A stretch of DNA of 63,829 nt, counting the filler, from Craspedostauros australis (lineage: Eukaryota): assembly GCA_030167865.1 (NCBI GenBank). It is 12 parts of 12 records of this genome, joined end to end, with 100 filler letters (N's around TTAATTAATTAA, not from the genome) between each part and the next. Parts side by side here need not be neighbours in the genome. Positions count along the whole stretch, not along the records: positions 24,682 to 29,301 come from JALAGF010004549.1; 11 more parts are not named here. One strand, given 5' to 3'. The translations under genes were made by a program, and so were the position numbers. Of the stretch, positions 1 to 36,398 are shown piece by piece (within the stretch, counting starts at the first letter, position 1; each line of letters starts with the position of its first letter). The notes under the pieces were generated by a model, which saw only the letters and a program-made list of their open reading frames with translations, had not been told where the DNA came from and made no database searches.

Positions 1-172
1 TTGTGTTGATGTTGATGTTGTTTGATGAATCATGGGTGCAAAATCGAAGATTCGTTGTTTTGGATGGTGTCAAGAATTGTTGGCGCGTTTGGCGAGTACT
101 CGTCTGTCTGCCATCCGTTGTTCATTCAACCAATGATACACACAAACACTCACAACCAACATCACCTCTCTG

Positions 173-2640
173 TTGTCTTCATTCGACACAACTCTGTTCG
201 ACGATGGTGATGGTGATGGCGATGGCGATGGCGATGGCAACCACTCCAATGACGCCGCATCCCTTCACAATTGGTACCACCACCAACAACACAAGCACAA
301 ACAAACAGACAAGATGATGAGACATCGACATCCAAGAGGATCTGTGGGAAGGCTCGCCAGTTGCTCCATGCCTTGACCCACCCGTCGTACGACTATGAGT
401 ATTGCTATGGAACCTTCCATGAGTACGATCTACTCTGGGAGTTGCCACAGCAAAGCGTCCAGCCTGATACTCTGTTCGAACCTTCATGAGGTCATGACAA
501 TCGAAGTTGCTGGAAGAGGACGGTGTCAGACTGATAGCGGAGAAGCAAACGGAGACCAAGCAACCGCAACAGGCCCACACGAAATCGAAGGCGCGCAAGC
601 CCACCAGCGTTGCCAAAGAGGCCAAAGCAGCTGCAAAATCAGGTCGTCGTGCGAGTGTCAGCACAGATACACCAAGCAGGGCCAATAGAAGCACAGCACA
701 AGATGCGAAAGCTTCGGCTGTGAAACTATCATGTGCGAAGAGTCTGGACATGCTCGACATTCTCAACATGCAAGATCACAAGATGTCATTCAACTCCCTT
801 GATCCCAGCAAGTTCAACAACAACAAACCGATGCCGGTGCCAATCACCCCAGGTGGGCTCTGCTTCGCCACAGCCCCAGCACTCGGCGCAACCAGCGAAT
901 GGAGCAGCCAAGACAAGATGAAGCTTGCCCAGAGTCGGAGACGCAGGCCAAGGACACAACCGAATTCCAACGGAACGACCAGCAGCGCCAAATCGAGGAG
1001 CAAGAGTTTGGAATTCTCGAAGGATGGACACCACATGCCAGGCACAACATACACATCAGACACAACAGGCGCGATGAGCGCAGCCAGCACCCCCGCTCTA
1101 TCTCGAGTTGCGACAACGGAGACGTCACGCAGTGAGAGCCTGGAGTCACTCTCCAATCTGCCAAGTCTCTACGACAACGATGACGACAGCATCGGCGTTG
1201 CGACAAGTGCTGCTACAACGAACGTTGGGAGAAGCCCCGAGGCCCCTGTCACGCCTGGAGGTTGGAGCGCGGCATCTACACCAGCCCCCTTCAGCCGCAC
1301 ACATGAATAGAGACAACAGTCTTCGTCGTTGAACAAGCGCAGGTCGACGTTGGACAGCATCCTCAAGATCAAATCATCAACATTACGTGAAGCGTCATCG
1401 ACCAATCCTGCCAAATCGAAGCAATGACCATCTCTCGAATGTCGACCATCGCAATTGGCCGACCTTGCCTTGACTGAAGTATCCGCAAAGGTGTCATCAT
1501 CGTCGCTACCGTCATCATCATCACAGTCCAAATCCAAACTCAATCTTCAACAGTTCGAACACGAACGCGAACATGGAGGTGTCTCGGCCATACACCTCAA
1601 GCCCCATCCAGTCCTGGAGCCATGAGTTTGGGAATCGAATTGAAATCGAGCAAGAAGGACCAGGTGGCTCCTTCTCACAACAGATCCGCACACAGTTCGT
1701 TGCGCCCAAGTGAAGACTCAAAGCAACGACGTTCACACGGACGAAGCACGGGTGTTCTACGTGATGAGAAGCGATCAAGGAAAGGATCTCCAAGGTGCTT
1801 GGCAATGGGCCCCAACATCACCACTCCAGCAAAACAAGAGACGTGTCATCACCATTGATATTACCATCGAGATCACCGTCGCCACGGCATCGGCGGAGAA
1901 GCACACAACACACCAGTGGCAAGCTGCACTCGACATCGTCAAGATCAAAGAGTGTGGAGCGTTCACCATCATTGCGTCATCGTCGTGACGGAGCAATTCA
2001 CACTTCCTCCTCTGGAAGAAGCTGCCGCTCCCCATCGGTGCAGAGTCGTCGAAGCCTGTCCGATCGCGATCACAGAAGACTGCGCAAGTATCGATGGACT
2101 CATCACCATAATCGCGGCGACAACGAACATCTGGCAGTTCGGATGATATGAACGCAGCCTCGCGTTCACGCCAATCCAACTCAAATGCGCACTCCACCGG
2201 TACTGGTTTGCACCAACGCAAGGGCTCACCTTCCCGAACGCATGCCCAAGGAAGTTCGCGAAGACCAAATCAACGTGGCCATAGCCAATCGACACCATGT
2301 GGCGAAGATCAACGAAGGAAGTTCTACGATGAACGATCATCATCGGCGCGACAACGAAGCAGATCAAGAGGATATCGAAATTGCAGTGTCGAACAGCACA
2401 GCGATGAGAGAGATGAGAATGGACGACATGGCAAAGAACAACATGGCCAACAACAGCAAGGCAACAAACGTTCGTCATCACGCGGGGCCCTTCAATCAAA
2501 TTGTTGTGGACGAAGCAGATCATCGACTCGCGATGCTGTCTACCATGAGAAGCTGTCCGGCACAAAGCCACTGCAACTCATATCAAAGAAAGCAGTCAGG
2601 AACAAGAGCGCGTCTCAGTGCCGCCATCCCTTGATGAATG
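173..2640 (+). pseudogene. Decayed gene for a Ser/Thr/His-rich low-complexity protein
   Basis: Chain of + strand ORFs (173-376, 395-, 507-1310, 1622-, 1795-, 2185-2634) with similar composition. The frame continues past in-frame stops at 374-376 (TGA), 1308-1310 (TAG) and 1425-1427 (TGA); several frameshifts. No recognisable domain. Confidence 0.4.
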
Positions 2641-14733: not shown

Positions 14734-16478
14734 TTATTTCTCTTCCTTGGCAGCGCCGTCGCTCTCAGCCACCCTGGAAGATGTGATGGAACGCACGAAG
14801 CGCAACAGCGCAACGCGATACATGTACGAATGGACCTGCGCAACACCCTCGTCTTCATCCACAACCTTGTACAACTACATCATGGACATACGACCGTACC
14901 CATCATCAACTCCATCACTCTCCGCTCCCCCACTGCAGAGGACATGGATGCCTCCCATCAGTTGGGGCTGTATAATCAGCTTGCTGAAATCTGAATGAGT
15001 GAACATATCTTTCTCGCTTTCAGCTGCCATTCTCATTGCCGCATCCTTCAACATCACACAGTTGTGTTGATGGGCGAATAGCAATGCATCTATCATGTTG
15101 TCCTCTGTGAGATGCTTGTGGGCCAACTCTGCTTCAAGAACAAGCTTGAGTCGCCAGAAGCCGAATTCGTTGGCCACAAGGATCAGCTGTTGCAGATCAT
15201 CCTGTCCCGTGAGGATGGGAGTTGGCAGGTGAAGGGCGTCTGCATCGTGGTGAGCGCCGGCGTGAGCGCCGGCATGAGCTCCGATGTGAGCAGCAGCGTT
15301 GTCACGAGCGCTGTCATTGAAGGATATCTCGCCTGTGTAGATGCATTGGAGAACGTATCGGACGTGTGTTTGGTTGAAGGTTGGGAAGAGGGACAGTTGC
15401 TTGCATGGGACCGTGCCGTCTTCGGTGCCATCATTCGCGTGCTGATGTTGGATTCCTTTGTCAATCAGTGTCTCAATGGATGGGACGGTGATCATGAGGA
15501 CTTCGGCATTTGCCTTGATTGGTTGTTGTTGGTTGCCCTGTCCACACAAGAAGATGGTGTCTGCCGTGTTCTCAGTTTGAAAGGATCTGAGGCGGTCTTC
15601 TCCAATGCGATGTTGGTCCTCTTGTGGGTACTGTGTTTGTGTTCATTCTCTTGCCTCTTTCGCTTCAACTGTTGTCCCAACTGTTCTTGTGGCTGTTCAT
15701 TCTCTTGCTCGTTTTGTTGTAAGCGTTGCTGCAGTTGTTGCAGTTGTGGGTGAGCTGAAGGCGAAAGCCCTCTGATGAGGGACTCCATACACTCCAGGTG
15801 GCCGCTGTCGCATGCGTTATCAAGGGGAGTGATACCATAGTTGTTTTGGCAGTTGATGTTGGCCTCACATGATTCGATGAGGTACTCCACGCACTCCAGT
15901 TTGCCGTTGCAGCATGCCCAATGAAGGGGAGTGTAACCATAGTTGTCTTTGCAGTTGATGTTCGCCTCTCGTGATTTGGTGAGGTACTCCACGCACTCCA
16001 GGTGGCCGCTGTCGCATGCGTTATGAAGGGGAGTGATACCATAGTTGTTTTGGCAGTTGATGTTGGCCTCACATGATTCGATGAGGTACTCCACGCACTC
16101 CAGTTTGCCGTTGTAGCATGCCCAATGAAGGGGAGTCCAACCATCGTTGTCTTTGCAGTTGATGTTCGCCTCACATGATTCGATGAGGTACTCCACACAC
16201 TCCAGGCGGCCACACTTGCATGCCCGATGAAGGGGAGTCCAACCTTGGTTGTCTTTGCAGTTGATGTTCGCCTCACATGATTCGATGAGGTACTTCACAC
16301 ACTCCAGGTGGCCGTTGTGGCATGCCCAATGAAGGGGAGTCAAACCAGCCCAGCCTGTAACCTGGCTGACATCAACTCCTTCATTCTGCGACTCGTTCTG
16401 CTTCTTCCATTCCTTCAACACCGACAAGTCACCTTCCCTGGCAGCATCAATGAGTTGTTGGTCTGTGATATTCGGCAT
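14734..16478 (-). pseudogene. Ankyrin-repeat + BTB/POZ(-BACK-like) gene with one frameshift and one in-frame stop
   Basis: Ankyrin ORF from ATG 16478 and a Gln-rich coiled coil. A frame change at about 15645-15585 leads into DRLRSFQTENTADTIFLCG...VLQCIYTG...LILVANEFGFWRLK...DALLFAHQHNCVMLKDAA (BTB). After TAG 14875-14877 the frame continues LYKVVDEDEG...RVALLRFV to TAA 14734-14736. Could be assembly error rather than a true pseudogene. Confidence 0.8.
15775..16346 (-). repeat. Six near-identical 102-bp tandem ankyrin-coding units
   Basis: 34-aa unit GxTPLHxACxxGxLECVEYLIESCEANINCxxNx; units 3-4 and 5-6 form a 204-bp duplication. Confidence 0.95.
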
Positions 16479-18425
16479 TTTGAGAGGATGGTCAATGATT
16501 GACGTTGGACGATTGGCGTTGGATTGACTGTCGAGGAAGTGTGCTGTTCGAGCTACCCATGACATGTGTGTTGTTGATGTGTTGGAGTGTGGGGTTGAGC
16601 AGTGTGTGCAGTTGCCTCGTTTCGATGTTCTCCCGTTTCTCTCCTCGTTTCTCTGTTTGTCTACTTCTTGATCGCACCCCTGGTTTGGGAGAGGGCACCA
16701 GCGCTGTCTGGAGAGTGCGGATCCTTCCTTTTGCTGACTACGAACTGGCGCACACAACAACGAGAAGAAGGAACAGGATACGACACGCCCCACAAGATCG
16801 CTGTTGCGAACGCGAGAACACCACAAATGGGAATCGTCGATTCTCGCTTCACCGCTTTTGCGCGCGCCGCAAGATGGAGAATCGCGAACAAGGCCAAAAC
16901 GACGGAAGGAAAAAGAACGTTTTGGAATAAGTGACCACTGCGACTCAACTGAAGGGACCATGAGCACCGTAGCGTCTGTGCGTTATTCACCTAATAGGTA
17001 GATATACCATGATTTTCAACCCTCCACAACTTCAAACTGATTGGACGGAACAAATCTCGTTCTTGCCATACGATGTATCTGATGTAAGAGAAGAGATCTA
17101 TGCAGTTAGTTTTCACATAGAAACCACGTTCCCAAGAAAGGTGTACTATTTTCACTCAACCGGGTCTGATGTCGCCTGTCCGTGAGTACGTTTCATTCAC
17201 GAATGTTTGGCGGAAAATCGAGGTCGACAGGGTCTCGGATCCGTGAACCAACCAGAAATGTACCGAATCAGTCTCATTGACAAAAAAACAAAACAAGGAA
17301 CAACGCAAAAAACGCACCTACAAAGGACCGGTTAGAGATAGCTTGGCCATGTTCATCGCCTCATAACTTTATAAAAAAGAGCCGGATTCACTTTCTAGCA
17401 CCTTCCCCTGACTACCAATGTGTTATTGTAGATATTATGTAATATTACAGAATATGATTTACTTTTAGTCTGAATAGGAGCCCATGTTTTCAGGATCCTG
17501 TTGGGACCGTACGGTCATTGGCTGGCGTGGGTCGTACTCAAATTATTGTGGATGGCCGGCTCTGCTGTTGGATTTTGGCGCCGGCTGGCTGGCGACAACA
17601 AATTTCGGTTTGAATTTTTGGCGCGACTCGTCCGCGGTTGAACACCAACACGATCAACAACACAAACAACGGTGTGTGTCATGAAAGCAGCTCGTTTCAG
17701 CCGAAGCCGCTTCTGTGGCACCAAGAAAACGAGTTCCGCAACAGAGCCAGATGTTCTCATAAAACCGAAGGGATCTCAAAAGCAAAGCGATCAACCAAGC
17801 GTTGCAAACAGTGATCAATAGCAGCCAGACCATCAGCAGCTCCATCCAACAACGACAACCACAAAAACATCAACTGAGAGGTGAGTGCAACGCAAGCAGA
17901 CTCGAACAGAACACAGCGCACGGTGCTATGGCATCATGATGCGGCGATATACACTGAACGACGCAGCGTGATGAATGGTCATGACTGTTATGGCACAATC
18001 GGACCACCGGCCAACAAGACGCCTTTCCGTCTTGTGCGCGATGCCTCCCTCCTCGTCTGCTGGTGCACTCATCGTCACGACTATCGCAACGTCACCTCGT
18101 TGCGAAGGAAGTTGTCGATGCCTTCTCCTCTGCCGACCTGTGTCCAACGAAAGAATGGGAACTCGTCCCTCCTCGTGGTTACCACATTGCGTTCGCAAAT
18201 CGAGTGACGCTGGTGTTCACCGGCGATCTGTGCCCATCGGGACTCGATGACTCGTGACAACATCCACGACTGACATGGATCTCGAAAATGACGAAAACCC
18301 AAAGTTCGGAAACAACACACAAAAACTGACCCACCACCGCTTCTGACACAATCTCAATCTTCTCCTACCACCACATGCACCAATCCTCGCTGTCAACTTC
18401 CTGCAGGCACCAAACAACAGCCAAG

Positions 18426-21400
18426 ATGTTCAGGATCAAGGCGGCCATCCTCAGCGCGCTCCTCCTCGCCCATGTGGGCTCAACGGAGGCCGTGCTGCGT
18501 GGCAGCAGAGCCGTGGGCCAGACCGAAGAGCTTCACGTCATGATGCAAGCCACCCGTACCCTCAAGGCCGGCGATGGCGGCGGCGACAAGCAAGACAAGG
18601 AGGGCAACAAAAAGAACAAGGACACGGAGGCGCCAACCAGCAACCCGACGGCCACCCCTGGCATGCCAACGGCGGCACCAACCAGCGCCCCAACTTCGGC
18701 ACCGACATCCGCACCGACCAGTGCCCCAACTTCGGCACCAACATCCGCACCGACCAGCGCCCCTACGTCGGCACCGACGTCTGCCCCGACCGCCACCCCT
18801 GGCATGCCAACGGCCGCACCGACCAGCGCCCCAACATCGGCTCCAACATCGGCCCCAACCAGCGCCCCGACATCCGCACCGACTTCGGCACCAACTTCGG
18901 CACCGACCAGCGCCCCAACATCGGCTCCAACTTCGGCTCCAACTTCGGCACCAACTTCGGCACCAACCAGCGCTCCAACCAGCGCTCCTACGTCGGCACC
19001 GACTTCTGCCCCAACCGCCACACCTGGCATGCCAACAGCGGCCCCAACCTCGGCTCCAACTTCAGCACCAACATCCGCCCCAACCTCGGCCCCAACCGCA
19101 CCAACCGCAGCACCAACCAGCGCACCCACGTTGGTACCAACATCTGCCCCAACCAGCGCACCCACATCCGCACCAACCTCGGCTCCAACTTCGGGACCAA
19201 CATCCGCGCCAACCTCGGCACCGACATCGGGACCAACTTCAGCACCCACTTCTGCTCCAACGTCGGGACCAACATCTGCACCGACATCGGTTCCAACATC
19301 CGCCCCAACTTCGGCACCGACGTCGGCACCGACATCCGCACCAACCGCGTTCGATGCCACCATCACCACTCAGTGCAATCCCGATGACGGCGGAGGCGCG
19401 ACTGTGGGAGACGTGAAGACCATCATCTGCAACAGAGACAAGGCTTCGTGCCGCCAGGCCATCCTTGCCGTCCGCGGCCTCCCGGATCTTCAAACATTCT
19501 TCGCATGTGCCGGCGACGGTACCAGCGAGGGAGCGTCCCGCACTCTGTTCAACAAGTTCGCTTCCAATCCAGACCTCGCTCAGCAACTCGAGATGGCCTT
19601 CTCCACAGGAACTCAATTCGTCACCGCCTTGGCTTCCGGCATCGCCGCGGCGTGCATGGGAGCTCCGGGTACCTGCTGCACACCGGCTGGTACCTGCACC
19701 TCCAGTTCCCCTCTTTCGTACATGACCGTGGCACTCAACGCATGTGTGGGAGACTTGGCATGCGATAGCATGGGACCCAACGCCATCGTCCTTGAATCTT
19801 CCTGCAACGGGGATAACGCATGCCAAGGCATGAATTCAAACGACGCTCCGGCGGACCCGGTGGCATCTGGAGTCACCTTTGTGGGCGAAGTCGCCTGTAC
19901 CACTGCGAGCTCTTGCAAGTACCTTGGAGTGTTCTCCTACGGCGATGTGATCATTCAGAACGGAGCGTGTGTTGGAGCGAACTCCTGTACCGAGGTTGGA
20001 GTGCGTCAACTGCAGACCACTGCAGGACGCACCGTGGCCAATATCAACATCGGGCAGAACGCCTGCAACGAGGTCAACTCGTGCAACAGAGCCCACTCCT
20101 CCGGCACTGGGAGTACAGGAACCAAGATCGGCGGAAGCCTCAGCATCGAGGACGGAGCCTGTGTTGGCAGCAGCGCCTGCGAAGACCTGGCCAACAGTGA
20201 CCTCATGACCACAGACGTGGTCGTCGAGGCTGACGAGTGCTTCGGAACCGAAACCTGCAAGGGATGCGTCATTGACAATTGCCCCACCCCGTTCAACCAG
20301 GTGTACGTCATCAGCAACGCAGCCCTCGCGTGCCCCAAGGACACCATGGGCAACCCAACCGGTGCCGCTGTCTCAGGCTCCTGCGTCAGCAGGGCCGATC
20401 GCCCAACCGAGTGCCCTACCTTCGCCCCAACTCCGCTCATGAGCGACGTCCCGTCCGTCCTTCCGTCCGAGCTCCCGTCGCTTGGCCCAACCGGAAAGCC
20501 GACCGATATTCCAACCGACCGTCCATCCGAGCTCCCGTCCATTGGTCCGTCCAACATCCCAAGTGTCCTTCCATCCGACGGACCCACCATCGAACCAACC
20601 GCTGCTCCAACCATCAACAAGACTACGCTGCAGACGCTCTGCCTGACAACTCCTGGTGATGTTGATGGCGGGTTGACGATGGGACCAGAGGTGCTCTGCG
20701 ACGACAACATGGGCGTGTGCACCAACTTCGTGAACGACATCGAGTCGCTCCCTGATAACAAGGACAGACTCGTCAAGAGTATCTTCGGATGTGGGGATGG
20801 TCTACTCATGACCAACGGCGTCGCCCAAAGACGCTTCGACACCATCAAGAACGACGCGAGTGCCATCACCGCCATCCTTGGTGCCCTTGAGGGCAGTGGC
20901 ATTATCTTGACCGGAACTGCATCGGCTATCTCCGACGAATGTACTGCGAACAGCGCCCCGTGCTGCACTGCAATCGGTTCAGATTGCACCGCACCAACTT
21001 CCACCGATGTCATCACCATCACTCCAGACTCGTGCTCCGGAGACCTGTCCTGCAACGGCCTTGGCCCCGACGCCATCATCCTCGGCAGCTGTCTCGGTAT
21101 GAATTCCTGCAATGGCCTTGGCAGCTTCGACAACGCACCCGACCCCGCGGCCGTCATTGGTCACACCATCATCGGACCAGCAGCCTGCACCAACGAAGAT
21201 AGCTGCAGAGGCCTGGGAAGCAACATCTACGGAAACATCCGCATTGAGCGTGCCGCATGCAACGGTGTGGGCAGCTGCCTCGGCATGGGGGAGCGCGTGC
21301 AACAGTCATCGATGGTCATCACACCAGTTCTTGCCGATATCATCGTGCAGCAGGAGGGATGCCAGGGACAGCGCTCGTGCCAGAACGTCCACCGCGGAAC

Positions 21401-21653
21401 TGGAAAGACCGAAGGAAGCCTCAACATCGGAGTGGGCGCCTGCATGTCCGTTGACAGCTGCAACGGCGCCGCAAGTGGCAACACTGCGGTCGATGACCTC
21501 GTCATCGCCGACGGTGTTTGCATGACCAGCAACAGTTGCCAGAACTGCGTCGCCACCGACATGTGCCCCGGCGACCCTGCTCAGACCTACACCATCGCCG
21601 ACCCGAGCATGGACTGCCCCACCGTCAACGGAGGTGCATGCACTTCTTCGTAA
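18426..21653 (+). CDS. Large secreted mucin-like/cysteine-rich extracellular protein (about 1075 aa, single ORF)
   Basis: Signal peptide MFRIKAAILSALLLAHVGSTEA, LRG and RTL motifs, long PTSA repeat tract, two copies of a Cys-rich module (IGxxACxxxxSC repeats) separated by a P/S/T linker. No transmembrane anchor seen. Confidence 0.88.
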   Translation: MFRIKAAILSALLLAHVGSTEAVLRGSRAVGQTEELHVMMQATRTLKAGDGGGDKQDKEGNKKNKDTEAPTSNPTATPGMPTAAPTSAPTSAPTSAPTSAPTSAPTSAPTSAPTSAPTSAPTATPGMPTAAPTSAPTSAPTSAPTSAPTSAPTSAPTSAPTSAPTSAPTSAPTSAPTSAPTSAPTSAPTSAPTSAPTATPGMPTAAPTSAPTSAPTSAPTSAPTAPTAAPTSAPTLVPTSAPTSAPTSAPTSAPTSGPTSAPTSAPTSGPTSAPTSAPTSGPTSAPTSVPTSAPTSAPTSAPTSAPTAFDATITTQCNPDDGGGATVGDVKTIICNRDKASCRQAILAVRGLPDLQTFFACAGDGTSEGASRTLFNKFASNPDLAQQLEMAFSTGTQFVTALASGIAAACMGAPGTCCTPAGTCTSSSPLSYMTVALNACVGDLACDSMGPNAIVLESSCNGDNACQGMNSNDAPADPVASGVTFVGEVACTTASSCKYLGVFSYGDVIIQNGACVGANSCTEVGVRQLQTTAGRTVANINIGQNACNEVNSCNRAHSSGTGSTGTKIGGSLSIEDGACVGSSACEDLANSDLMTTDVVVEADECFGTETCKGCVIDNCPTPFNQVYVISNAALACPKDTMGNPTGAAVSGSCVSRADRPTECPTFAPTPLMSDVPSVLPSELPSLGPTGKPTDIPTDRPSELPSIGPSNIPSVLPSDGPTIEPTAAPTINKTTLQTLCLTTPGDVDGGLTMGPEVLCDDNMGVCTNFVNDIESLPDNKDRLVKSIFGCGDGLLMTNGVAQRRFDTIKNDASAITAILGALEGSGIILTGTASAISDECTANSAPCCTAIGSDCTAPTSTDVITITPDSCSGDLSCNGLGPDAIILGSCLGMNSCNGLGSFDNAPDPAAVIGHTIIGPAACTNEDSCRGLGSNIYGNIRIERAACNGVGSCLGMGERVQQSSMVITPVLADIIVQQEGCQGQRSCQNVHRGTGKTEGSLNIGVGACMSVDSCNGAASGNTAVDDLVIADGVCMTSNSCQNCVATDMCPGDPAQTYTIADPSMDCPTVNGGACTSS
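18644..19347 (+). repeat. 12-bp coding minisatellite (PTSA)n with three PTATPGMPTAA higher-order markers
   Basis: Read directly; markers at about 18644, 18785 and 19010; synonymous variation among units. Confidence 0.95.
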
Positions 21654-24600
21654 ACACAACGCATGATCCATCCATCAACCGCTGTGTGCGCATACCGACG
21701 AGTGACAGCATCTGGCACCACGCTCCCAAGTCCAACGCGCAGCTGCAACTGCCGATCCTCAGTTGAGAGGACGGTGAGGCGCGCGAGAACCAACCAACCA
21801 CGTGGGTCCGTCGGCGTTCAGAGCCTGTGCCATACTCACACCCACACATCCACACATCAACATTCAACAAAACCACCCCGATCAATTGAAGCGCTACACA
21901 ATCGAACCAACCCCAACCAACACAAACAAAATGAACAGTGATCCATCTCGCAAACCCCCCTCACCCCCCTCCCCATTGCATCTGCATTTGCATGTTTATC
22001 TGGGAGTGAGCCTGTTCCTGACGTCCATAGAGGCGACGTATCTTGTGCACGGAGACGACCGGCGACGAAGTGTCTGCCTACCGGTATCAACCGCATGAAA
22101 GTCTGAAAGGAAAAAGGATTACAGCCGTCTGCACAAGAGGCTGTGTCGTCTTGCCCATGTCCACATTGGAGTCTAAACTGCGAATGGTCATGTGCTGTCC
22201 CACGACCTCTTCTTTCGAGTAGATCAGATCAAACCTTGGCCCGAGTATTGCCAGGGAATGATTTGATAGCATCTATAAATTAGCGAAGAGAACAGCACAT
22301 GTAAAACAACAATCGTCTCATCGCTATTGCCTCGCGAGCACCAGCGCACGCACCAGTCTTGAGAGAGCAATAGCAGCACAATTCATTGTATATGTTTCTG
22401 TCAGAGGTGAGGAGAAGGGATAGGAGGCGCCCCAGTTTGCTTGTCGACATCGCCGTATTTGTGCGCGTCGCCCAAGGCCAAAGTCAGAGTAGTCGTAGAT
22501 GAGTTCCACTGGTTGCCTGCCTGATGCTCTCTACTGACTCAGCAGCAGTGGCGAGATGTTCTGCTCTGTTTTCTGCTGGCTGCGCTCTTTTCAATACTCC
22601 GCGGATCCATCGAGTGAACCAGATGATCTGCAGAATCGGTGGCTGTGGTGCAACGCCCCGATCATGAGTGTCGTTGTCCATGCCCACGTCCCAGTGCAGG
22701 TGGTTTTGAACTTGGATACCCGTATACTATTATATGTACAGACGCTCAGGCAACGGTGCTGCGGGTTGGATCCATGCACTCCACATACATATTAACCATG
22801 CTTTTTTGTTTTGTAATGTAATATTGTATTACATTATACTATCCAGCTGGTGGTCAGATGCGCTCAGCAGCACTTTGATGAAGCCACAGGTGGGCTGCAG
22901 CTGGTGCATGCTGTTGCAGGCAGGCACTCTGGGGACTGACTCCACACCGAATGGATCGAACAGGAGATAGAAGTGTACCATACTCTATAGCAGCTCCTTC
23001 CTCCCTCCTGCATGTGCAAATTGTGTGGGGAAAGTGGTGATCGTGTCCATGTGGACATGGGCGTTGTACGACTACAAACATGAGCTATTCGTAGGAATCG
23101 TTTGGGGCTACACTTTGCAATAGTCAACCAGCGTGCGAAGGAGACGCAGTCTCGAGGCCCAGAGCTCGACAATCAACATCAGCAACAATTTGGCACCCGA
23201 TAAGATCGGAGCCCATGTGCATGTTAGAGTATCTGTTCTCCACAAAGTGGACAACTCTTACTGCGCCAAGTAGCGCTCTCTCCTGCCACCGCCCTCTCAC
23301 TTTGTTGTTGTCTTCCTTTCGCAGTTGCACATATTCGCACTTGTCGAATCTGTGCAACCTTGGGCACGTGTCATCCAACTATCGGATGGTTGTGTGGAAT
23401 TGGCAGTGGTCTTTCCAAGTTACGACACACGTGAAACCGATTTAGAGTGAAAAAGAGTAAAGATGTAGATTATGAGTCTTATCCATGTCGTATGCGTCAG
23501 TGTCTTGGCTGCATTACCGTGTTGTTCATGATTGGTAACAGCGTCTATCGTGTAACGCCATTTCAACGGTTTCATACATATCCGTGAGGAAAATAAAAGG
23601 ACTCGTGAGTCCGTTTAGCGCTAAGTGGACTCACCAATCCACTTGGCATTTTTGTTGCTTCGTAAGTGGACTCACCGATCCAGGAGGATACGGAAAAGCA
23701 CAGACCAGCGCGTCAAGTCTTGGAGCGTATCTAAATTGTTAATTCTGACTTTCCAAAAAGGTCTGAAAATAGGGTTATTTTTTGAGAGGAATACGCGAAT
23801 TGTATTTTCCCAAAGGTGCACTTGTNNNNNNNNNTCATCAGTGCTGTACGCGTCACTCTGTGTGGTTTGTCTGTTGTGACAACAACTGTGTGTTCGTTGA
23901 CACAGATTGGCGTGTGTGGTTCTTTTGATGACTTCAGCTGTTGTGGTGCTTGATCCACACAAGGTGCCTCTGTTCTGGTACACAGCCAGCAAGTGTCATT
24001 GCACAAGGAGCGTTGGTAAATTGTTTGTTGGGTCGAAGTTGTCTCGCACCAAACCGCATCACACCACTCGCGTCACCAGGACAGCATGCACAGTCGTGTG
24101 GCATCGAACAGGCACCGAAGCGTCTGTGCCATGAAGCACATTGGGACGGGTTCATTGGCAAGTTGGCGCTCTCACGCTGTTGGGTGGGAAGATTTGCGAT
24201 TTGGTGGATCTCTCTCTCTCTGTGTCACCACAACACAAACAATCGTGTGAGCGAGTTGTTGTCGCCACGGTGGCGAGTTGATTGCCAATGACGGTTTTCG
24301 CTGTGACCCAGTCTTCGATTGATACGCATGCGCATAATGTCTGTTTCTTCTTCGCTTAAATCAATGAACACAAGTGAGCTCTGGGCATATTTTATAGAAC
24401 TTGCTTTTTGTCGCAAACATGTCCGTAACCATAAATACCTGCATGCGATGACGTCCGATTGCCCATTCAGGACAAAAATGACAAAATACTGGCACCTGCA
24501 TGGAGCACAGCCTGCACTGGGCACGGTAGAACAGGATGGTGTCCATGTCTCCCCACGAAGACTGTTTCCAATGGGCATGACNNNNNNNNNNNNNNNNNNN

Positions 24601-24681
24601 NNNNNNNNNNNNNNNNNNNNNNNNNTTAATTAATTAANNNNNNNNNNNNNNNNNNNNNNNNNNNNNNNNNNNNNNNNNNNN

Positions 24682-27600
24682 GCAGCAGAATCGGTGGATG
24701 GGATGGCGATGTCAACGCCGATGCAAAGCCATCAACGTACGAGTGTTGCGATCACGTACCAGACGTTGATCTATGCAACGGCGCATCTCGTCATTCAATT
24801 GAGACAGAAGATCCGCCAATGCGCGCCGCTTCCTTCATTCGACGAGAACATTCCATCCATCGGTTTGCCCATCGCCGTTGCCATACCGGAAGGTCCGCTC
24901 CTGCCCCTCGTCATCCTCGCGGTGCATTGTCTCAATCATCCCTTCCGACTTGGGCAACGCGATGGCGCAGCGTACCACGGGCACGCGGTCATGATTCCGA
25001 TCGAGCCCAGCCAAGACGCGAAACAGAGGATCGCGCATATGATGGAGGATTCGAGGCCGTTGCTGGTGCTGTCCACGTCGCAAGGCGGTGCCGACTATCA
25101 GATTCTCCGATCTACTGTTGATCGTGACGCTGGAAACAGCAATGGCAACGCAGCTGCCGAAGGGCGGATCAAACCAACTTCATCGGCACGTTACATGCCC
25201 GCCGAAAAATCACACCTCGTTGACTTGCATCAGCTATGCCAGAGTATGCCGTCGATCAACCTAGACATGGAGCATCAGATCTACGAAGTTTTTCGAGTTG
25301 ATTCGGACTCCACCAAGAAAGGCAAGGCACGCGGTGATCACATTTCTCTGAAGCTGGCGATCAACTTCCTTGCGGATACATGGGATGATTCAGATCGAAT
25401 GGACAGCAGCAGTGCGTCCACTATCTCGGCAGAAACGCATACGATACCGAACGACATCGCGTCTCACAATCGGCTTTCGCATATGGTCTACACGTCCGGC
25501 ACGACGGGATGGCCGAAGGGTTGCATGTCCTCCATCCAGTCGTTGGACAACTACCTGCGTGCCAAGAACGAAGCGCATTCTGTCACATCCAAATCTACAG
25601 TTCTGTTGGCAAGTGCGCTGTCCTTCGATCCATGCATGTCCGATGTGTTGGCCACCTTCCTATGCCAAGCGACGCTGGCCATCGCGCCACGGTCAAGGCT
25701 CGTCAGTCATCTCTCACAGATCCTTCGGCAGCTGCACGTCACGCACTTGCTGTGCACGCCGACGTTGTTTCGTTTGGTCCAGGAGCCGCCCTCTGCGTTT
25801 CCGCAATTGCGGACGTTGGCGTTGGGTGGCGAACCCATTCCGGCATCTATCCGGCGTGTTTGGGGAGCGGGCGCAACGGCAACGAGCAAGACGGAATGTA
25901 AGCTGTTCGCCACGTATGGTGTGACGGAAGCATGCGTATATCAAACCATGGGAGAAGTGTGCCATTCGCCATCATTGCCAGCGTCGCCATCGTCTTTGTC
26001 TCACGCTCAAGCCGTCACGAGCAATCAAGCGAAGGCTGCGACGCGGGCCACCGGAAAAGGGCTCGTTGGACTACCTTTCCCAGGCATGCATGTGCAGATC
26101 TGTGTGGAAGCAATTCAAGACAGAATCGTTCCCGTTGCGCAAGATGATGGTGGCGTTGCCAACGGCCCTGATAGATTCGGAGAGATTGTGCTTTCTGGCA
26201 ATCAACTGGATGAATTCTCCGGATACTGGAATCGCAATGACTTGCATCACAAATTCATTTGCGAGACTCAATCTGCTGCAACACGGTGCTTCTACCGAAC
26301 AGGCGACAGGGGATACGTCGACCACGATGGCAGCATCCATGTGATGGGGCGAATCCAAGGCGAGGAAGGCATGATCAAGCATAATGGTGTTCGGATCGAG
26401 CTAAACGAGATCGCTGCGGCCATGGAGGAGTGGCCAGGCACGTCATCAAGCATCGTCCAAGGCTGCGTCGTCGTGGCGCGTACGGTTCCATTGCATCAAG
26501 GGTCCGAACAGAGCGGCGCTTCCCATGACGATGGAGATGGCGCCATTGGTAGTGACGACGATACGAAGACAGAAATTCATGCCTACGTTGTGCTCACGGA
26601 TTCCTGTCTCCGTAGCATGGGGGTTCGATTCGATTCATCAAGGAAGCAGCCGCCGGCCTATCTCATCAGTACCAGCCCCCTCTGGACACTACTTCGCGCG
26701 GCATGCCTGTCCAGGATCAAATCGGCATGTGTGCCGTCGAGCTTCGTGTTGATCTCCCAAATACCACTATCACCAACGGGCAAGAGAGACAACAGGCAGT
26801 TACCTCGGTTGCAGGACTGTCTCAAGTTTAACTTTGCCAAGCAAGCCAACAGCGGCATCGGAAACGATACTTGCGATGACGACGAGAACAGCGGTGACGA
26901 TGAAGGGAATACGCCACTGGCAGAATACGGCAACACGGGAAGGCTCGTCGCCGAACAAATCATCGAGTGTCTGAATCTGCAACAGTGCCAACAATCCATG
27001 CTCACCATCGATGCCAGCTTTGGCATGCTCGGAGGAGACTCCCTGGCCGCGACGCGGATCACGCGTGCCTTGTACGCAATGCATCATAACATCAACAACA
27101 CTCGGCATCTCGGTGGAGAATACGGAACATTGGAGGGACCCTTCAATGTTGTTCATATCCTTCGCGCGACGAAGCTGAAGCATTACATCGACATGCTTGA
27201 CGATCACAATGTTTGCAGCCACGCTTGGGATCATGAAAAGCAAAGTGGGACAGCTAATTCCGCGACCCAAACATCATCGCCGTCGCCAATGGCAACCACA
27301 GACGTTGCATCGCCGCATGACGCCGAACAACAGCGACTGTACGACGCGCTGCTGCAGGCGTGCACCTTGCAACAGACGGACGTCGCCATNGGACTGCTGC
27401 AGTTCGGCGCCGACCCCAACTGGGGNGCGCACGGTGGACGGTTGGGCAAGACCTCCGGCCGCATCGCGCAGAAGCAAANCTTCCGATCCAGCCCCCTGCA
27501 CCTGGCCGCGGCGAAGGGCGATGCGCGTCTNGTGCACAAGCTCCTCGCCTGCGANGCCAAATGGAACACGCCGGATGCATCGGGATTGTATCCGCTGCAT

Positions 27601-28089
27601 TTGGCGGCCGCCTCCCATTCTCGATTGTTGCGGGCGGGGCTTGTCGAGACCAACGAAGATGATCAGGAACGTCTGGATTGCGTCAAGATGCTTCTGCAGA
27701 GCGGATCCCCCATCAAGATGAGGGACGGCAACAAGCAGAGCGTGTTGCACTGCGCCGCCCGAGCCGGGCACACCGCGATCGTGGAGTACGTCATGCAGGA
27801 ACGCATGCACGACGAGGACGCGAATCCAAGCGATCATGACTTCAATTGCTTCGATCGCTGGTACAGAACGCCTGCGCATTGGGCCGTGCTGAATGGCCAT
27901 GCGGAGTCCTTGGCCGTCCTGCTGCAGCACGGCTGTCACCCCGATCCGCCGAAACCCAAGGTGAACAGGAAATCCAGCGCCGCCGTCGAAAGTCCGATGG
28001 AGATGTGCGAACGTATCCATGGCGATGATTCCGAAGTCGGACGTCGCATGATGGATCTGCTGATGAAAACCCAGCGCGGAATGGATTGA
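24682..28089 (+). CDS. NRPS-like monomodular enzyme: adenylation domain + phosphopantetheine carrier domain + C-terminal ankyrin repeats (possibly 5'-incomplete at the spacer)
   Basis: A-domain motifs YTSGTTGWPKG, SFDP, TYGVTE, GEIVLSG, YRTGD, GR...IKHNGVRIELNEI, PLSPTGK. Carrier motif FGMLGGDSL (Ser codon 27040-27042). Ankyrin motifs SPLHLAA, YPLHLAA, SVLHCAARAGH, TPAHWAVLNGH. Confidence 0.9.
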   Translation, partial: AAESVDGMAMSTPMQSHQRTSVAITYQTLIYATAHLVIQLRQKIRQCAPLPSFDENIPSIGLPIAVAIPEGPLLPLVILAVHCLNHPFRLGQRDGAAYHGHAVMIPIEPSQDAKQRIAHMMEDSRPLLVLSTSQGGADYQILRSTVDRDAGNSNGNAAAEGRIKPTSSARYMPAEKSHLVDLHQLCQSMPSINLDMEHQIYEVFRVDSDSTKKGKARGDHISLKLAINFLADTWDDSDRMDSSSASTISAETHTIPNDIASHNRLSHMVYTSGTTGWPKGCMSSIQSLDNYLRAKNEAHSVTSKSTVLLASALSFDPCMSDVLATFLCQATLAIAPRSRLVSHLSQILRQLHVTHLLCTPTLFRLVQEPPSAFPQLRTLALGGEPIPASIRRVWGAGATATSKTECKLFATYGVTEACVYQTMGEVCHSPSLPASPSSLSHAQAVTSNQAKAATRATGKGLVGLPFPGMHVQICVEAIQDRIVPVAQDDGGVANGPDRFGEIVLSGNQLDEFSGYWNRNDLHHKFICETQSAATRCFYRTGDRGYVDHDGSIHVMGRIQGEEGMIKHNGVRIELNEIAAAMEEWPGTSSSIVQGCVVVARTVPLHQGSEQSGASHDDGDGAIGSDDDTKTEIHAYVVLTDSCLRSMGVRFDSSRKQPPAYLISTSPLWTLLRAACLSRIKSACVPSSFVLISQIPLSPTGKRDNRQLPRLQDCLKFNFAKQANSGIGNDTCDDDENSGDDEGNTPLAEYGNTGRLVAEQIIECLNLQQCQQSMLTIDASFGMLGGDSLAATRITRALYAMHHNINNTRHLGGEYGTLEGPFNVVHILRATKLKHYIDMLDDHNVCSHAWDHEKQSGTANSATQTSSPSPMATTDVASPHDAEQQRLYDALLQACTLQQTDVAXGLLQFGADPNWXAHGGRLGKTSGRIAQKQXFRSSPLHLAAAKGDARXVHKLLACXAKWNTPDASGLYPLHLAAASHSRLLRAGLVETNEDDQERLDCVKMLLQSGSPIKMRDGNKQSVLHCAARAGHTAIVEYVMQERMHDEDANPSDHDFNCFDRWYRTPAHWAVLNGHAESLAVLLQHGCHPDPPKPKVNRKSSAAVESPMEMCERIHGDDSEVGRRMMDLLMKTQRGMD

Positions 28090-28669
28090 TGTGGATTGAT
28101 GTGGATTGATGTGGACAGAGCAAAGGTATGACGCACGCTTGCTCCTGCAAATGGAATGCGCCGAGGGTGGTCATGTTTCGCGATGGCCCACAGAGATCAA
28201 GAACGAATGTTCGAATTGTTGACATCATTAGTCGAACGAGTCAATACTGCGAAGACAATCAGAAGCGTTAGGAAAAAGAGAAGCACAAGGAACACAACAG
28301 ACTTCGAGAGGTCAATAAATCCTTCGAGACAACACAGGATCAGACACGCACGCACAGCACAAAGATCGACGCGTCGTCAACAAGGAGGAAAGATCGACTC
28401 GATGCAGATTGCGTTCTCAACGATGACAGCAGAGAGAGGCAGCGAAGGCAATGGTGATGGCAATGGTGATGGCAATGGTGATGACCATGACCATGACGCC
28501 CACAATCGAAAAGAGAAGCACAAGAGAGTCTCCAAGCACTCTGCACCTCATACCGGCACCCACACTCACACCCACACCCACACATCATCATACTCGTAGT
28601 TCATAAGCAAGACCACAAGCAACAGGAACAGCAATAGGAATAGCAATAGATATTGCAGCAACAGCGACC

Positions 28670-29301
28670 ATGACGACCGAAAGCCCTGCCACTGACGCCA
28701 CCACTGCGGAGGCCACCCCAGCAACTGCTTCAGCAGAAGCAGACGCAGCAGAGACAAAGACGGACCTGTCTGCCGCAATCTACTCACCTGATGACATCGA
28801 GGAGATCCTCGTCTACGCCATGCCCGGATCGCAGTTCACCGCCAAGGTCCTGGCGGCCTTCGATGCCTGCAAGATCCCCCACACCTGCTTCTTCGTCAGC
28901 CCGCAGAAGGCCAAGCGCGCGAAGGAGATCCCCAGCGGCGGAACCTTGGTCCCAGAGATCAAGATCACGCTCAAGACCACGGACGAGGCCAAGGACAAAG
29001 CCAAGGACGAAGCCAAGGACGAGGACAGCACCATCCTCCTCAAGGACAGCGAGCACATCCTGGAGTGGTTCAACGAGCACTACAAGATGGCAGACGCCGA
29101 CACCCTGGGCTTCTTCCCAACGCCCGAAGCGAGCGTCGCGTCCATTCGCGCCTCCAACGGCCTCCTCGCTGGCTCCGTCTACTTTTACAACTGGGTCTAC
29201 AATGACGGCTACGAGCGCAGCATGAAGGTCTCCGTGCGCCGCTTCCTCTCCATCCCGGAATGGATCCCCGCCTTCGTCACGTCCGCTCCGCTCGATATGC
29301 T
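28670..29301 (+). CDS. GST N-terminal (thioredoxin-fold)-like protein, 3'-truncated by spacer
   Basis: VYAMPGSQFTAKVLAAF...KIPH, cis-Pro-like motif TLVPEI and DSEHILEWF match the GST-N layout; strong C/G-ending codon bias. Confidence 0.7.
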
Positions 29302-31408: not shown

Positions 31409-33776
31409 ATGTCTGATCTGGGCCGAGCTTCGCGCGGCGCCAACAAAAAGGTTGGTCATGAGACAGACCGATCGAATGGACCCGACGATGATCTCCCACG
31501 GGACGGATATGGACGAACGGAGCTCATGCGGGCTTGTCGTGATGGAGATGTTTGGAAGGTCGAGATTCTGATCGAAGCAAGTCCCTTGCGTATCAACTGC
31601 AGTCTCACCGACTTCAACGGCTTCACGCTGTTCCATCACGCATGCTGCAGCAAAAACTTAGACGTTGTGGAGTACTTGGTTGAATCCACGCAGGTCGATA
31701 TTGACCCAAATGCGCAAACCAGGGACATGTACACGCCATTGCACTTTGCATGCCTTTACAAATCTCTCGACGTGGTCGGGTACTTCTGTACAACGAAGGA
31801 ACTTCGCATCGATCGGTTCCTTCGTGACCATAACGGTGACCTGCCAATTCACATCGCGTGCGCAAACAGGGATCTTTGTGCGCTGAAGTGCCTGGTGCAG
31901 GCTGACCGGACGAAGACAGTTTGCAACACAGCGGATAGGAATAACCGGACGGCACTCCACTATTCATGCGGATACTTCAACAAATCCATGGCGGAGTATC
32001 TCATCAATACCTGCCAATCTAGTCTTGATGTCAACATCCAAGACAAAGACGGCCGAACACCGGCCCATCACATGTCTCAATTGATGGATGGCCAGTTGAT
32101 GAAACTTCTGCTTCGAAAGGATCAAGCCTACGTCGATCTCACCGTCGCGGACAGCAATGGCGAGACACCGTTCCATCTGGCTTGCAAGAGTGCATCGAGA
32201 GAGGTGATTGAGCTCATGATGACATCGACCAAAGCGAAGACCGACCTGGAAAGAACGAACGAGTCCGGTCAAACGCCATTCCACTGTGTGTGCATGAATT
32301 ATGATCGGGGTGTGGCTTTTTGTTTCGCCCAATTGAACCTCGCTTCCATTGATTTCAGCGCACAAGACAAGCAAGGCAATACTCCGATCCACTACGTGTG
32401 CGAAAGAGGATCTACTGGCTTGATGAGAGGCTTGGTGGCACTCGCATTGGAGCAACTCAACGACGCACTTAGCATTCAAAACAAGGCTGGTGAGACGCCA
32501 TTCCATTTGTGCGTGCAGGAATAGAGGTGATGGAGAAGATTTCATCCAGTACCTCATGGAATCGGACCAAATCAAAATTGATTTTGATATCCATGACACG
32601 AACGGCAATACACCATTCTATTCCGCCTGCAAATATGGCAGTGTGGGCGTCGTGAGCTACTTGATTGAATCGAGTGAGGTTGATGGCAGCGTCTATACAA
32701 GAGACAGCACCGGTAATACACCGCTCCATAGTGCATGCGCCAGATATGATGAAGACTTGGTGGAGTACCTTCTTGGGTTGGACGAAGACAACATCGGCAT
32801 GGCATTGCAAAATGATGACGGCAATACACCTCTTCATCTGGCATTAATGAAAGACAGCGTTTCTTTCCTTTGGTGCATCAACGAGAATGAAGATACGTAT
32901 TTCGACATGGAGCTCCAGAACAACGATGGGGACACGCCGCTTCATCTGCTGGTGCGATCCGGCTTCACCAATCATGCGGATTGGTTGGCTGATATTGCGT
33001 CTCGTGATATCGATGGCACCATCCGAAACGACAACGGCAATACTCCGCTCCATCTCGCGTATATGAACGCCAGACCTTACATGCTCGACGCGCTGCTCGA
33101 GTTGAACAACCTGAAGGTGGATGTCAATGCACAGAATAATGATGGCAACACCGCCCTCCATCTTGCATATCAAAATGAGTCATTGCATTTCCTCCAGGAT
33201 AAGTACTTGGATGGATTTCACGAAGATTGCTTTGATATTACCATTCAAAACAACCATGGCGACACCCCAGTCCATTACTCCAGGAAGGATCACAGAGTGC
33301 TTGCCGTTGACCAAGAGATGAAGCTCACGAAACTCTACGATCAAATCCAAAAGGAGATAGTCCCGAATCGTAACTTGGATCAAGGTCGCACCGTCGAAAG
33401 GGGAGATGCGATAGATCGCTTGATCACATCAGCACAACCATTGGCGGATATACAGAACAAGAACGGCGACACACCAATGCACCACGCAGCCCACAACGGG
33501 TTTCTCAACATGGCAGTGTCTCTGATTAAATCAGATGGAGGAGTGGATGTGAGCATTCAGAATCGTCATGGCGATACACCGTTGCACATGGCAAGTTGGA
33601 ATGCTGGAAAGCGAGTGATTGAAGCATTACTCAACAGTGCGGGCGTGATAATTGATTTGGATATCAAGAACAACGCCGGCGAAACTGCGATGGGCATCGC
33701 GAAGACGAAAGGGCACAGTGACATCGTTGCGTTGTTGGGAGGACGAAGGCGGAGAAAGCGCATCAAGTTCATGTGA
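31409..33776 (+). CDS. Long ankyrin-repeat protein (roughly 20 repeats) split by a single +1 frameshift
   Basis: ORFs 31409-32524 and 32490-33776 are both made of GxTPxHxAC repeats. Removing T32510 joins ETPFHL-ACRNRG in repeat register. Basic tail GRRRRKRIKF (NLS-like). Confidence 0.85.
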
Positions 33777-36398
33777 TAATAGAGCTAAACTAGTAACCAC
33801 CTTAGCGAGAGAGACTACGAATCATCCGACTCGTCAGCATTCCAGTAGATCGGACGGACACTTCGCCGAACCCCACGTTTGGAGACAGATCCAGAACCTT
33901 GAAGCGGATCTTCNNNNNNNNNNNNNNNNNNNNNNNNNNNNNNNNNNNNNNNNNNNNNNNNNNNNNNNNNNNNNNNNNNNNNNNNNNNNNNNNNNNNNNN
34001 NNNNNNNNNNNNNNNNNNNNNNNNNNNNNNNNNNNNNNNNNNNNNNNNNNNNNNNNNNACCCACGGTACTTGGGCTACACAACCCACACGCATTGTCATA
34101 CAGGACATCACAGGAGATTCCCCTCGAAGAGAAGAACCATAGCAAGAATCTCATAATCCGCACGTTTCTTCACCATCTACCAGTATTCTAAATTGACTAC
34201 TTGTGGAACAGAAGACTCTCGTCCGGATCGNNNNNNNNNNNNNNNNNNNNNNNNNNNNNNNNNNNNNNNNNNNNTTAATTAATTAANNNNNNNNNNNNNN
34301 NNNNNNNNNNNNNNNNNNNNNNNNNNNNNNGCGCGTTTTTGTTGAGTGACCTTGTGTCATACTCCTCTACATCCATCACAACATCATGCGCACTGCATAC
34401 TCTACGCACACCCTACTATTCTACTCTGCATGATGTTGCTTTTCTGCATAATAGATCTGGATTGTTTGCCAACTGCTATCTTTGTTATTCTAACATGACG
34501 TGCACAATCACCTTCATCATTGAATGGGAAAGAGTAGTCTTTCGCATCTTTGTTTTTGTGTTGTTTGTGTGTCGGAATGTGTATAGGTGTATGTGCATTA
34601 CTCACCCATTATTCTCTTGTACTCTCTGTGCAAACGGCGCTAACATTCATGCCATCAATGAAGCGTGATTGAGTGAATCACATCACGAATTTACGCGCGC
34701 CAATGTGTTCACCATTTCGGAAGGCAATAGGTGAACAACATTATCTGAGAGCATCAGATATTTGGTCTGTCCATCCATTCGACAGAAACAAGTGACATCA
34801 AGCCAAGGTCGAAATATCTCACAACTATGCCCAAAATGACAATACCTTTACCTCCCATCTACATCATCATTGGAATATGGAATGTGAAGGAGTATGGAAT
34901 GACAGCTAGCACTGACACAATGTCATGTGTCCCCACATCAACAGCTGACTCCACATCAGAACAGAATCCAAAGATTCTATTACTGTGGCATCATGGAGAT
35001 CATGGATATGAGTTAAGATTTGGGCTTAGGCGACGCGGATCAGTGGAGGATGCCTCGTGAATCTGCCAGCTTCGAGATAGCCATGTAATGCAGTTCAAGA
35101 GAGGTGTGCTGGTTGAAGAGTTATTGCTGTAATGATGAGTAGAAGAGTACTTTGTAGCTAATCCTTGTCTGTTTATGATGAGTTAGCTTGTAGTGTTAGT
35201 AGGGTGAAGAAACGATGTTGCTCAGCTTGGTGGGACCCTGCACTGATGTACTTGGTTCAGTGCTTGGGGGTAAGCAATTATTGCAGTTCTTTGCTCTCCA
35301 CACACATAGACACACTGTAGTGTAGGTCATGACACTCAATGGTGATGGTCATGAAGCAATGACTGTGGCTTGAGTTCACTCTCGGATTCCATTGCTTGAG
35401 TTGAAGCAGGTTGGATACACGTGTCAAGACTACAGCAATAGTGCAGCAGCCATTAGCACGGATGGAATCAAGATGTGTTGTAGAGAAAGGATCTGAGGAG
35501 CATATAGTTCCCAAGGTGAGATGTAAGTCAGGTCGGTCATGTTTGAGTCATGATGGATTTGTGAATGGAGGAGAGAAAGAAGGGGGAAAAGATTTGGTGG
35601 TCAGTCAAGTCGGAAGATTTCGCGCCAAAACAAGAATTTCTCCCATCAGAGGTGGATACCATGTCCGGTAATAGTCTGCTCGCATTGAATCTCAACTATA
35701 TGTAAAGGAGGAGTTCAACCAAGACTTTGAAAACTCCGCATGAAGCAGTAGGCCAATATGAGACAGGATGATTGAGTACGTATCGGATACAGAGTATCGC
35801 GCACTGATAACATGGAGAGAGAGAGAGTGTTGGAAGGCTCCGCGCACGGAGAATCAGTAGTAGTCACACTCTTTGGCTGTAAGTGTTTCTGTTACTTGCT
35901 ACTGTTACTGTTATCGATTGTTGATGAGCGAGCGTGCAGAATGAGATGATCAAGATGCTCTCTTGATCCATCTCTTCCTTGCTCTCATTACTGGTACAAT
36001 ACTCTTGCACCTCTATGCACATTGCTCTCCTTGTTGTTTGTTGATGTTGACTTGATCGTCAACGTTGTCGTCTCTCTCTCGTTGTCTCGTCGTTGTTCCA
36101 TTCTCGGGTTTTGTTGAATCTGATGATTGATCGAATCTGATGGAAAATATAAATCATATTTCATTCTCTGTAGACCTGGTAGGTAAGGCCTTGATGTGAT
36201 GTCACATGCGGTGGATACTGTGGTATCCGCTGGTATTGCAGTATCCTGACATTGTAGTATCATAGTGTCCTCATGGTATCATGGTAGTATTGTTGTGACG
36301 TCATCAATTATCAGCACAAAACCGAATAGTGCTAAGTACGTTACTCCTGTAGCCCCCACTATCTATAAATTTCACTTGTGTTCGGTTCAGCAATCGCA

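Follow-up and report, generated by a model that had tools for sequence, protein, structure and literature searches.

Where does an activated acid go when the enzyme that carries it ends in a protein-binding scaffold? The question is raised by a gene of the diatom Craspedostauros australis (GenBank assembly GCA_030167865.1), which lies on the forward strand of the window analysed here, that is, a stretch of 63,829 nucleotides in which parts of 12 records are joined end to end. The gene is predicted to encode an adenylation (A) domain, a carrier or thiolation (T) domain and an ankyrin (Ank) solenoid within one open reading frame (ORF). Its 5'-truncated coding sequence (24682..28089, +) is open from the contig edge and closes with a stop codon at 28087-28089; the first listed start, GTG at 24694, yields a protein of 1131 amino acids (24694..28089, +), from which residues are numbered below. 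An earlier note on this DNA had read a full set of adenylation motifs, a GGDSL carrier motif and ankyrin repeats in that single ORF, and motif reading, Pfam searches and the open frame all agree with it.

Adenylation domain and substrate pocket

The protein was compared with a homologue set consisting of the best 120 of 291 matches, giving an alignment of 121 sequences with the query included. Pfam AMP-binding was detected on the query ORF with an E-value of 2.5e-29 (residues 98-512). The large N-terminal subdomain of the A domain (residues ~20-555; 24751..26358, +) contained motifs A1 (ITY), A3 (YTSGTTGWPKG), A4 (LSFDPCMSD), A5 (ATYGVTEACVYQT) and A7 (YRTGDRG), and the small C-terminal subdomain (residues ~556-712; 26359..26829, +) contributed A8 (GRIQGEEGMIKHNGVRIELNEIA) and A10 (PLSPTGKRD), together with the catalytic Lys697 (codon 26782-26784). 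Core motifs A3, A5, A7, A8 and A10, as well as the catalytic lysine, were invariant across the family. The best NCBIfam model was TIGR01733, describing amino-acid adenylation in nonribosomal peptide synthetases (NRPSs), with an E-value of 8.7e-50 and a score of 169.7 bits that lies below the 317.4-bit cut-off, and the family profile matched the A domain of LgrA at 5e-61.

Structure prediction gave a similar picture. The AlphaFold2 (AF2) model, computed from a 44-sequence family alignment, reached a predicted local distance difference test score (pLDDT) of 79.1 and a predicted template modelling score (pTM) of 0.75. Its front 700 residues resembled NRPS A domains (Foldseek E ~1e-22), with VIA comparisons over model residues 1..554 returning a Z of ~31 and a root-mean-square deviation (rmsd) of 2.7-2.9 over ~365 residues for the A domains of SidN, TycA and LgrA. 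By its motifs and predicted fold, the domain is thus of the NRPS amino-acid-activating type, with all catalytic motifs present. In all members of the family, the A domain and the A-T linker are broken up by four insertions that vary between lineages and are modelled at low confidence (query residues 140-250, 428-453, 600-625 and 717-731); the last of these, just ahead of the carrier, is acidic in the query and lengthens the distance between A10 and the carrier serine.

The residues that we take to line the substrate pocket, placed by motif offsets from the phenylalanine-activating domain GrsA-PheA, are D312, P313, S316, L353, A376, G378, T407, V415, Y416 and K697. Each of these ten positions, the last of which is the A10 lysine, is identical in 120 or 121 of the 121 sequences. 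In amino-acid-activating domains, the aspartate at the first pocket position and the A10 lysine hold the alpha-amino and carboxylate groups. Since both are invariant here and the remaining pocket positions are small or neutral, the alignment points to a fixed, single amino-acid-like substrate, amino-bearing, without a charged side chain and common to the diatoms of the family. Read as a string, D-P-S-L-A-G-T-V-Y-K, the pocket corresponds to none of the specificity codes known to us. Beta-alanine, considered by analogy with the enzymes AASDH and Ebony discussed below, was unsupported as a substrate: its codes start V-D, whereas this pocket starts D-P.

Carrier domain

The following segment (residues 738-848; 26905..27237, +) is best described as a divergent carrier domain. 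Its GGDS783L motif, contained in FGMLGGDSLAATR, places Ser783 (codon 27040-27042) 86 residues past Lys697, and all 121 aligned sequences have this serine; nearby R791 and Y794 are invariant in alignments of 54 and 44 sequences. In the AF2 model, helices at residues 749-760, 783-798, 819-824 and 828-837 make up a helical bundle, with Ser783 opening the second helix. Two LgrA entries align with the model through their first carrier domain (VIA, model 1..846 and 2..845), at an rmsd of ~13 that arises from domain arrangement. Among the ESM Atlas clusters shown, the nearest combined AMP-binding with PP-binding at a score of 0.98 and were bacterial where a taxon was recorded; the Atlas searches, made with X-free pieces of the query, returned no A-T-Ank cluster among those shown. 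The assignment as a divergent carrier relies on the invariant motif, the modelled fold and the position in the protein, and not on the profile score, which is weighed below. A linker modelled at low confidence (residues 849-870; 27238..27303, +; pLDDT below 50) leads from the carrier to the ankyrin domain.

Ankyrin domain

The remainder of the protein (residues 871-1131; 27304..28086, +) is an ankyrin solenoid. Ank_2 scored 70.6 bits against a cut-off of 27.3 (E 1.7e-19), with Ank, Ank_3, Ank_4 and Ank_5 also above their cut-offs (residues 930-1084), and Ank families were matched in 44 of 44 scanned family members. The earlier note had counted at least four repeats, a minimum that the AF2 model exceeds, with five helix-turn-helix repeats and a helical C-cap over residues 874-1130. 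A basic insertion, HGGRLGK.SGR, is conserved before repeat 2, and R916 is invariant.

Several groove positions, presumably the canonical target-contact sites according to the numbering of ankyrins and designed ankyrin repeat proteins (DARPins), are also conserved: F930 (0.98), S932 (0.80), A962 (0.83), Q1015 (0.96), R1023 (1.00), W1056 (0.94), R1058 (0.93), L1066 (0.85) and N1067 (0.79). This conservation spans four successive repeats, at a mean column identity of only ~31-33%. A fixed groove implies a fixed ligand, and the conserved groove residues fit a binding partner that has stayed the same across the family.

Five single N bases, which become X residues on translation, lie in a stretch of 170 bases inside the ankyrin-coding part (27390, 27426, 27479, 27531 and 27555); their isolated occurrence suggests low-quality or heterozygous positions of the assembly.

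Distribution and evolution in diatoms

AMP-binding (PF00501) and Ank families occur together in 120 of 120 listed homologues, which are 784-1281 amino acids long and share 33-44% identity with the query over 70-100% of its length. Wherever the source gave an organism name among them, it was a diatom, either a pennate (Nitzschia, Pseudo-nitzschia, Mayamaea, Amphora, Epithemia, Bacillariaceae) or a member of the Thalassiosirales (Skeletonema, Thalassiosira), and the A-T-Ank layout appears conserved across pennate and thalassiosiroid diatoms. The earlier note had raised the objection that the ankyrin part might be a separate gene. Transcript-derived ORFs from MMETSP among the listed homologues, one of them marked 'type:complete', speak otherwise, as they hold A and Ank in one ORF and so show that relatives encode A, T and Ank in a single mRNA.

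When the family profile was searched exhaustively against 1.84 billion representatives, the matches listed included 66 family-type proteins of at most 1291 amino acids; the other 84 listed rows were giant NRPSs that matched the profile only to position 747, covering its A(-T) part and not its ankyrin part. Even short representatives of 527-658 amino acids still cross the T-Ank junction. The taxonomy of ten low-scoring representatives added one name, Thalassiosira exigua, and a metagenome scan with generic A-domain peptides gave 67 loci at 22-28% identity, none of them at family-level identity.

In a quick tree of the query and 17 chosen homologues, the Thalassiosirales (support 100) stood apart from a pennate group (support 97) that contained the query, and the median terminal branch measured 0.87 changes per site. 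This topology fits vertical descent from before the split between pennates and Thalassiosirales, and the aligned sequences portray proteins that evolve fast while their catalytic core is frozen.

Members of the family are already present in databases, as the earlier note had allowed, under names assigned automatically, among them 'acyl-CoA synthetase/ankyrin repeat protein' and 'non-ribosomal peptide synthetase family protein', and they are functionally unstudied. The note had also known of no functional study of this architecture, and indeed full-text literature searches found no characterised orthologue and no paper describing or testing a diatom A-T-ankyrin enzyme, though the supplements of PMC13194791 and PMC7073580 might list the gene.

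Absent domains and the 5' end of the gene

No Condensation, Thioesterase, NAD_binding_4, PQQ or epimerase family was matched in the query or in 78 scanned members (44 + 34), and this includes the condensation (C) domain PF00668; the earlier description of an enzyme with no condensation, thioesterase or reductase domain therefore holds well beyond the query. The Lys2 equivalog TIGR03443 scored 43.8 bits against a cut-off of 1030.1. Nor was there a fused long form: among the 120 best T-Ank-matching proteins of 1981-5000 amino acids, AMP-binding was found in none (0/120), and all were generic ankyrin proteins.

The upstream side of the gene calls for closer reading. What had been taken for a natural spacer (24582..24681, unstranded) is an artificial linker, N44-TTAATTAATTAA-N44, between unrelated contigs, with identical copies elsewhere in the window; it lies outside the gene and marks its 5' break. 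The A-T-ankyrin frame is already open at contig base 1 (24682), and only 25 codons separate the contig edge from the A1 tyrosine, compared with a median of 62 residues (range 12-133) in 109 Met-started relatives. In addition, a 'YW' motif before A1, present in 103 of 120 listed relatives, is absent from the query; the start of the family's proteins reads 'PAI.W ... YW'. The short N-terminus and the absent motif together suggest that ~35-40 codons are missing beyond the contig edge. The missing piece was not found on the other contigs of the window by tblastn with the N-termini of Met-started homologues (best off-gene E 0.005). With at most 133 residues upstream of A1, a condensation domain of ~450 residues has no room in any of these relatives, and the objection that an upstream C domain might make this an ordinary NRPS is not upheld.

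Relation to known enzymes

The position that this family fills with an ankyrin solenoid is taken by a reductase domain in Lys2 and carboxylic acid reductases (CARs), by a beta-propeller in AASDH and by an amine-selecting domain in Ebony. Lys2 and CARs (A-T-reductase) share the monomodular A-T core; the reductase domain is theirs, and the diatom family has none. By analogy, the closest counterpart is AASDH/ACSF4-U26 of animals, which shares with the diatom family a monomodular, NRPS-like A-T core and, behind it, a repeat domain without catalytic function in place of a condensation, thioesterase or reductase domain. The two differ in the nature of the tail, a PQQ-like beta-propeller in AASDH and an ankyrin solenoid in the diatom proteins, where PQQ families were matched in 0 of 78 members. 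To our knowledge AASDH is an orphan with no known acceptor, and protein aminoacylation has been suspected for the animal enzyme and never shown. Ebony, the insect beta-alanyl-amine synthase, resembles the diatom family in being a stand-alone A-T enzyme. Its C-terminal domain is catalytic and selects the amine, whereas the C-terminal 260 residues of the query are ankyrin repeats, for which we know of no acyltransferase chemistry. Ebony releases its thioester without a C domain, as described in the accessible portion of PMC10531068.

Diatoms themselves offer one studied comparison. PtNRPS1, with the order A-T-R1-R2 (R, reductase), converts tryptophan to tryptophanol according to the accessible text of PMC13194791; no other NRPS-like enzyme of diatoms is known to have had its function studied. 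Its two terminal reductase domains provide reductive release, and the A-T-Ank family is a separate architecture without a reductase. This A-acyl carrier protein-reductase type, to which the diatom enzyme 'Other(A)' also belongs, is noted as conserved in three diatom genomes and is the only type described as common to them in the available part of PMC7073580. The word 'ankyrin' occurs 0 times in PMC13194791 and PMC7073580, as far as their accessible text extends. Natural-product genome mining in diatoms has missed the A-T-Ank family, judging from the same portion of PMC7073580, and the family's carrier falls below the Pfam threshold.

Fusions of a related kind are described from dinoflagellates, where single polyketide synthase (PKS) or NRPS domains are often joined to HEAT, ankyrin or pentatricopeptide (PPR) repeats (PMC6361889, available part) and ankyrin repeats occur on FabD-like acyltransferases (PMC8283056, available part). 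These fusions share with the diatom family the combination of assembly-line domains with repeat scaffolds in a chromalveolate alga. The reports differ from the present case in that they are survey-level, deal mostly with single domains and define neither an A-T-Ank family nor a function, and the lineage is another one.

Proposed mechanism

We propose that the A domain would adenylate one fixed, amino-group-bearing carboxylic acid, because the pocket aspartate and the A10 lysine are invariant and the pocket is frozen, and that the activated acid would then be moved to a phosphopantetheine arm on Ser783. As there is no release domain in cis, resolution of the thioester would take place in trans. 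The acceptor, which the ankyrin domain may recruit through its conserved concave face, would be either a target protein acylated on a side chain or a partner enzyme to which the acyl group is passed on. This general scheme of self-loading, resolution in trans and an ankyrin-recruited acceptor, which we infer from the features above, is the one towards which we lean, if by a modest degree of confidence. Its most specific form would be an NRPS-type, ribosome-independent protein aminoacylation, in which the carrier arm delivers an amino acid to the side chain of an ankyrin-bound diatom protein; this we consider rather unlikely. The interpretation in the earlier note accordingly survives in part: the stand-alone A-T-ankyrin enzyme stands and extends to a diatom family, while ankyrin docking and protein aminoacylation keep the status of a plausible proposal, for which the conserved groove now offers a tangible starting point.

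Proteins that evolve fast around an invariant pocket are more suggestive of a housekeeping-type role than of a variable secondary metabolite. The protein is probably cytosolic, since in most relatives no presequence comes before the A domain.

Several points weigh against this scheme, most of them concerning the carrier. Pfam PP-binding stayed below its cut-off in the query (14.7 vs 20.8 bits, E 0.038, residues 766-793), matched 13 of 44 members at E<=0.01 and missed the other 31, matched 3 of 34 further members at E<=0.001, and is missing from the precomputed Pfam annotation of each of the 120 listed homologues. The isolated carrier segment found nothing significant among PDB sequences, its best carrier match being ObiF1 at E 0.7, and its second half has an unusually long loop between helices 2 and 3. 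The pocket and ankyrin contact positions come from GrsA and DARPin motif offsets rather than from a computed superposition, and the gene is incomplete at its 5' end. The groove residues, finally, might instead be kept for a contact within the protein or for a partner that serves localisation. A predicted complex of the ankyrin part with the carrier part, run without controls and scoring 0.15 against a mark of 0.34, speaks neither for nor against docking between the two.

Alternative explanations

The alternative that survives best is a small-molecule amide or ester synthetase, from which a diffusible amine or alcohol, or else a separately encoded enzyme independent of the ankyrin domain, would release the loaded acid, and whose ankyrin domain would only localise, oligomerise or regulate the protein, for example by tethering it to membrane or cytoskeleton. 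Ebony is the precedent: its A-T core serves to make beta-alanyl amines, which are small molecules (a point also mentioned in the accessible portion of PMC10531068), yet it needs a dedicated catalytic amine-selecting C-terminal domain for this, and no such domain is present in the query or in the 78 members. A defined metabolite would account for the frozen pocket just as well. Ankyrin repeats serve as general-purpose adaptors, and the frequent fusion of single dinoflagellate PKS or NRPS domains to repeats comes with no specific role known in the available part of PMC6361889; in the diatom family, however, conserved residues occupy the canonical target-binding face of four successive repeats, and every complete member has kept the ankyrin domain. 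This conservation and retention argue for the ankyrin domain being an integral part of how the protein works, which need not mean a part in acyl transfer. We regard a small-molecule synthetase as possible, at a clearly minor probability.

A second alternative makes the carrier-like segment a degenerate relic, so that the protein would act as an acyl-AMP or acyl-CoA ligase or as an amide synthetase. The sub-threshold PP-binding scores, the many members that they miss and the lack of a significant sequence match between the isolated segment and any solved carrier would all be expected of a relic, but the GGDSL serine is identical throughout sequences that otherwise share about one third of their residues, R791 and Y794 are invariant in the alignments of 54 and 44 sequences, and the model predicts a carrier-like bundle whose helix 2 begins with the serine. 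Source annotations do label relatives as acyl-CoA synthetases; the best family-level match is nonetheless to NRPS amino-acid adenylation domains and not to CoA ligases, and the nearest Atlas clusters shown are A-T didomains. A relic carrier therefore seems to us improbable.

Least tenable is an ordinary NRPS module with its C domain past the contig break, or an assembly or fusion artefact joining separate A-T and ankyrin genes: the ORF does lose its 5' end at a contig edge in a highly fragmented assembly, but so few residues are missing, C domains are so uniformly absent from the scanned members and from the space before A1 in Met-started relatives, and A and Ank share a single unbroken frame so consistently, here and in all listed relatives including transcript-derived ORFs, with even the shortest representatives crossing the T-Ank junction, that this reading is close to refuted.

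Locus and neighbouring features

The window consists of short contigs joined by 11 identical N44-TTAATTAATTAA-N44 linkers with stops in six frames, each 100 bases long and starting at 8400, 24582, 29302, 34231, 40197, 43831, 49531, 51519, 53189, 57115 and 62414. Because it is a string of unplaced contigs, gene neighbourhood across linkers is meaningless, and ORFs touching a linker are truncated. The contig carrying the A-T-ankyrin gene (24682-29301; JALAGF010004549.1) is thus the sole true genomic neighbourhood.

The gene is nuclear and, judging from its coding sequence, apparently intron-free: insertions specific to the query do not exceed 19 residues, a small size for an intron, and GT..AG ends were seen in none of them. 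A single RNA run, with which a fraction of 0.10 of the sequence words was shared, gave zero coverage over 24682-27389.

The only true neighbour lies downstream on the same strand, where an ORF begins and is then cut off by the next linker (28670..29301, +). Its N-terminus is rich in Ala, Thr and Glu and is followed by a segment resembling GST_N_3 (a sub-threshold match, E 0.085), with no match among PDB sequences. It is possibly a thioredoxin-fold or glutathione S-transferase (GST)-like protein, and probably unrelated to the A-T-ankyrin finding.

Elsewhere in the window, another contig holds an ankyrin coding region at ~15774-16487 (-) with 26-32% identity to the ankyrin part of the family (tblastn), unrelated to it, and a weaker ankyrin-like match lies at 32676-33101 (+). 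G+C content differs markedly between the joined contigs, at 0.59-0.61 versus 0.41 (18001-22000 and 34001-36000), a contrast that could reflect different genomic compartments or contaminant contigs.

Implications

For monomodular A-T enzymes with a binding scaffold as third domain, of which AASDH is the type case, the destination of the activated acid is a long-standing puzzle. The diatom family offers a clean case of it, with a frozen pocket, a conserved groove that can be mutated and no room for hidden domains, in a group with several species open to genetic manipulation. Should the acceptor be a small molecule, the family would stand for a conserved, uncharacterised diatom metabolite. If it is a protein, these enzymes would be machinery for post-translational modification of a new kind, found in organisms that are major primary producers of the sea, and protein aminoacylation, if true, would have been conserved since before the split between pennate and thalassiosiroid diatoms.

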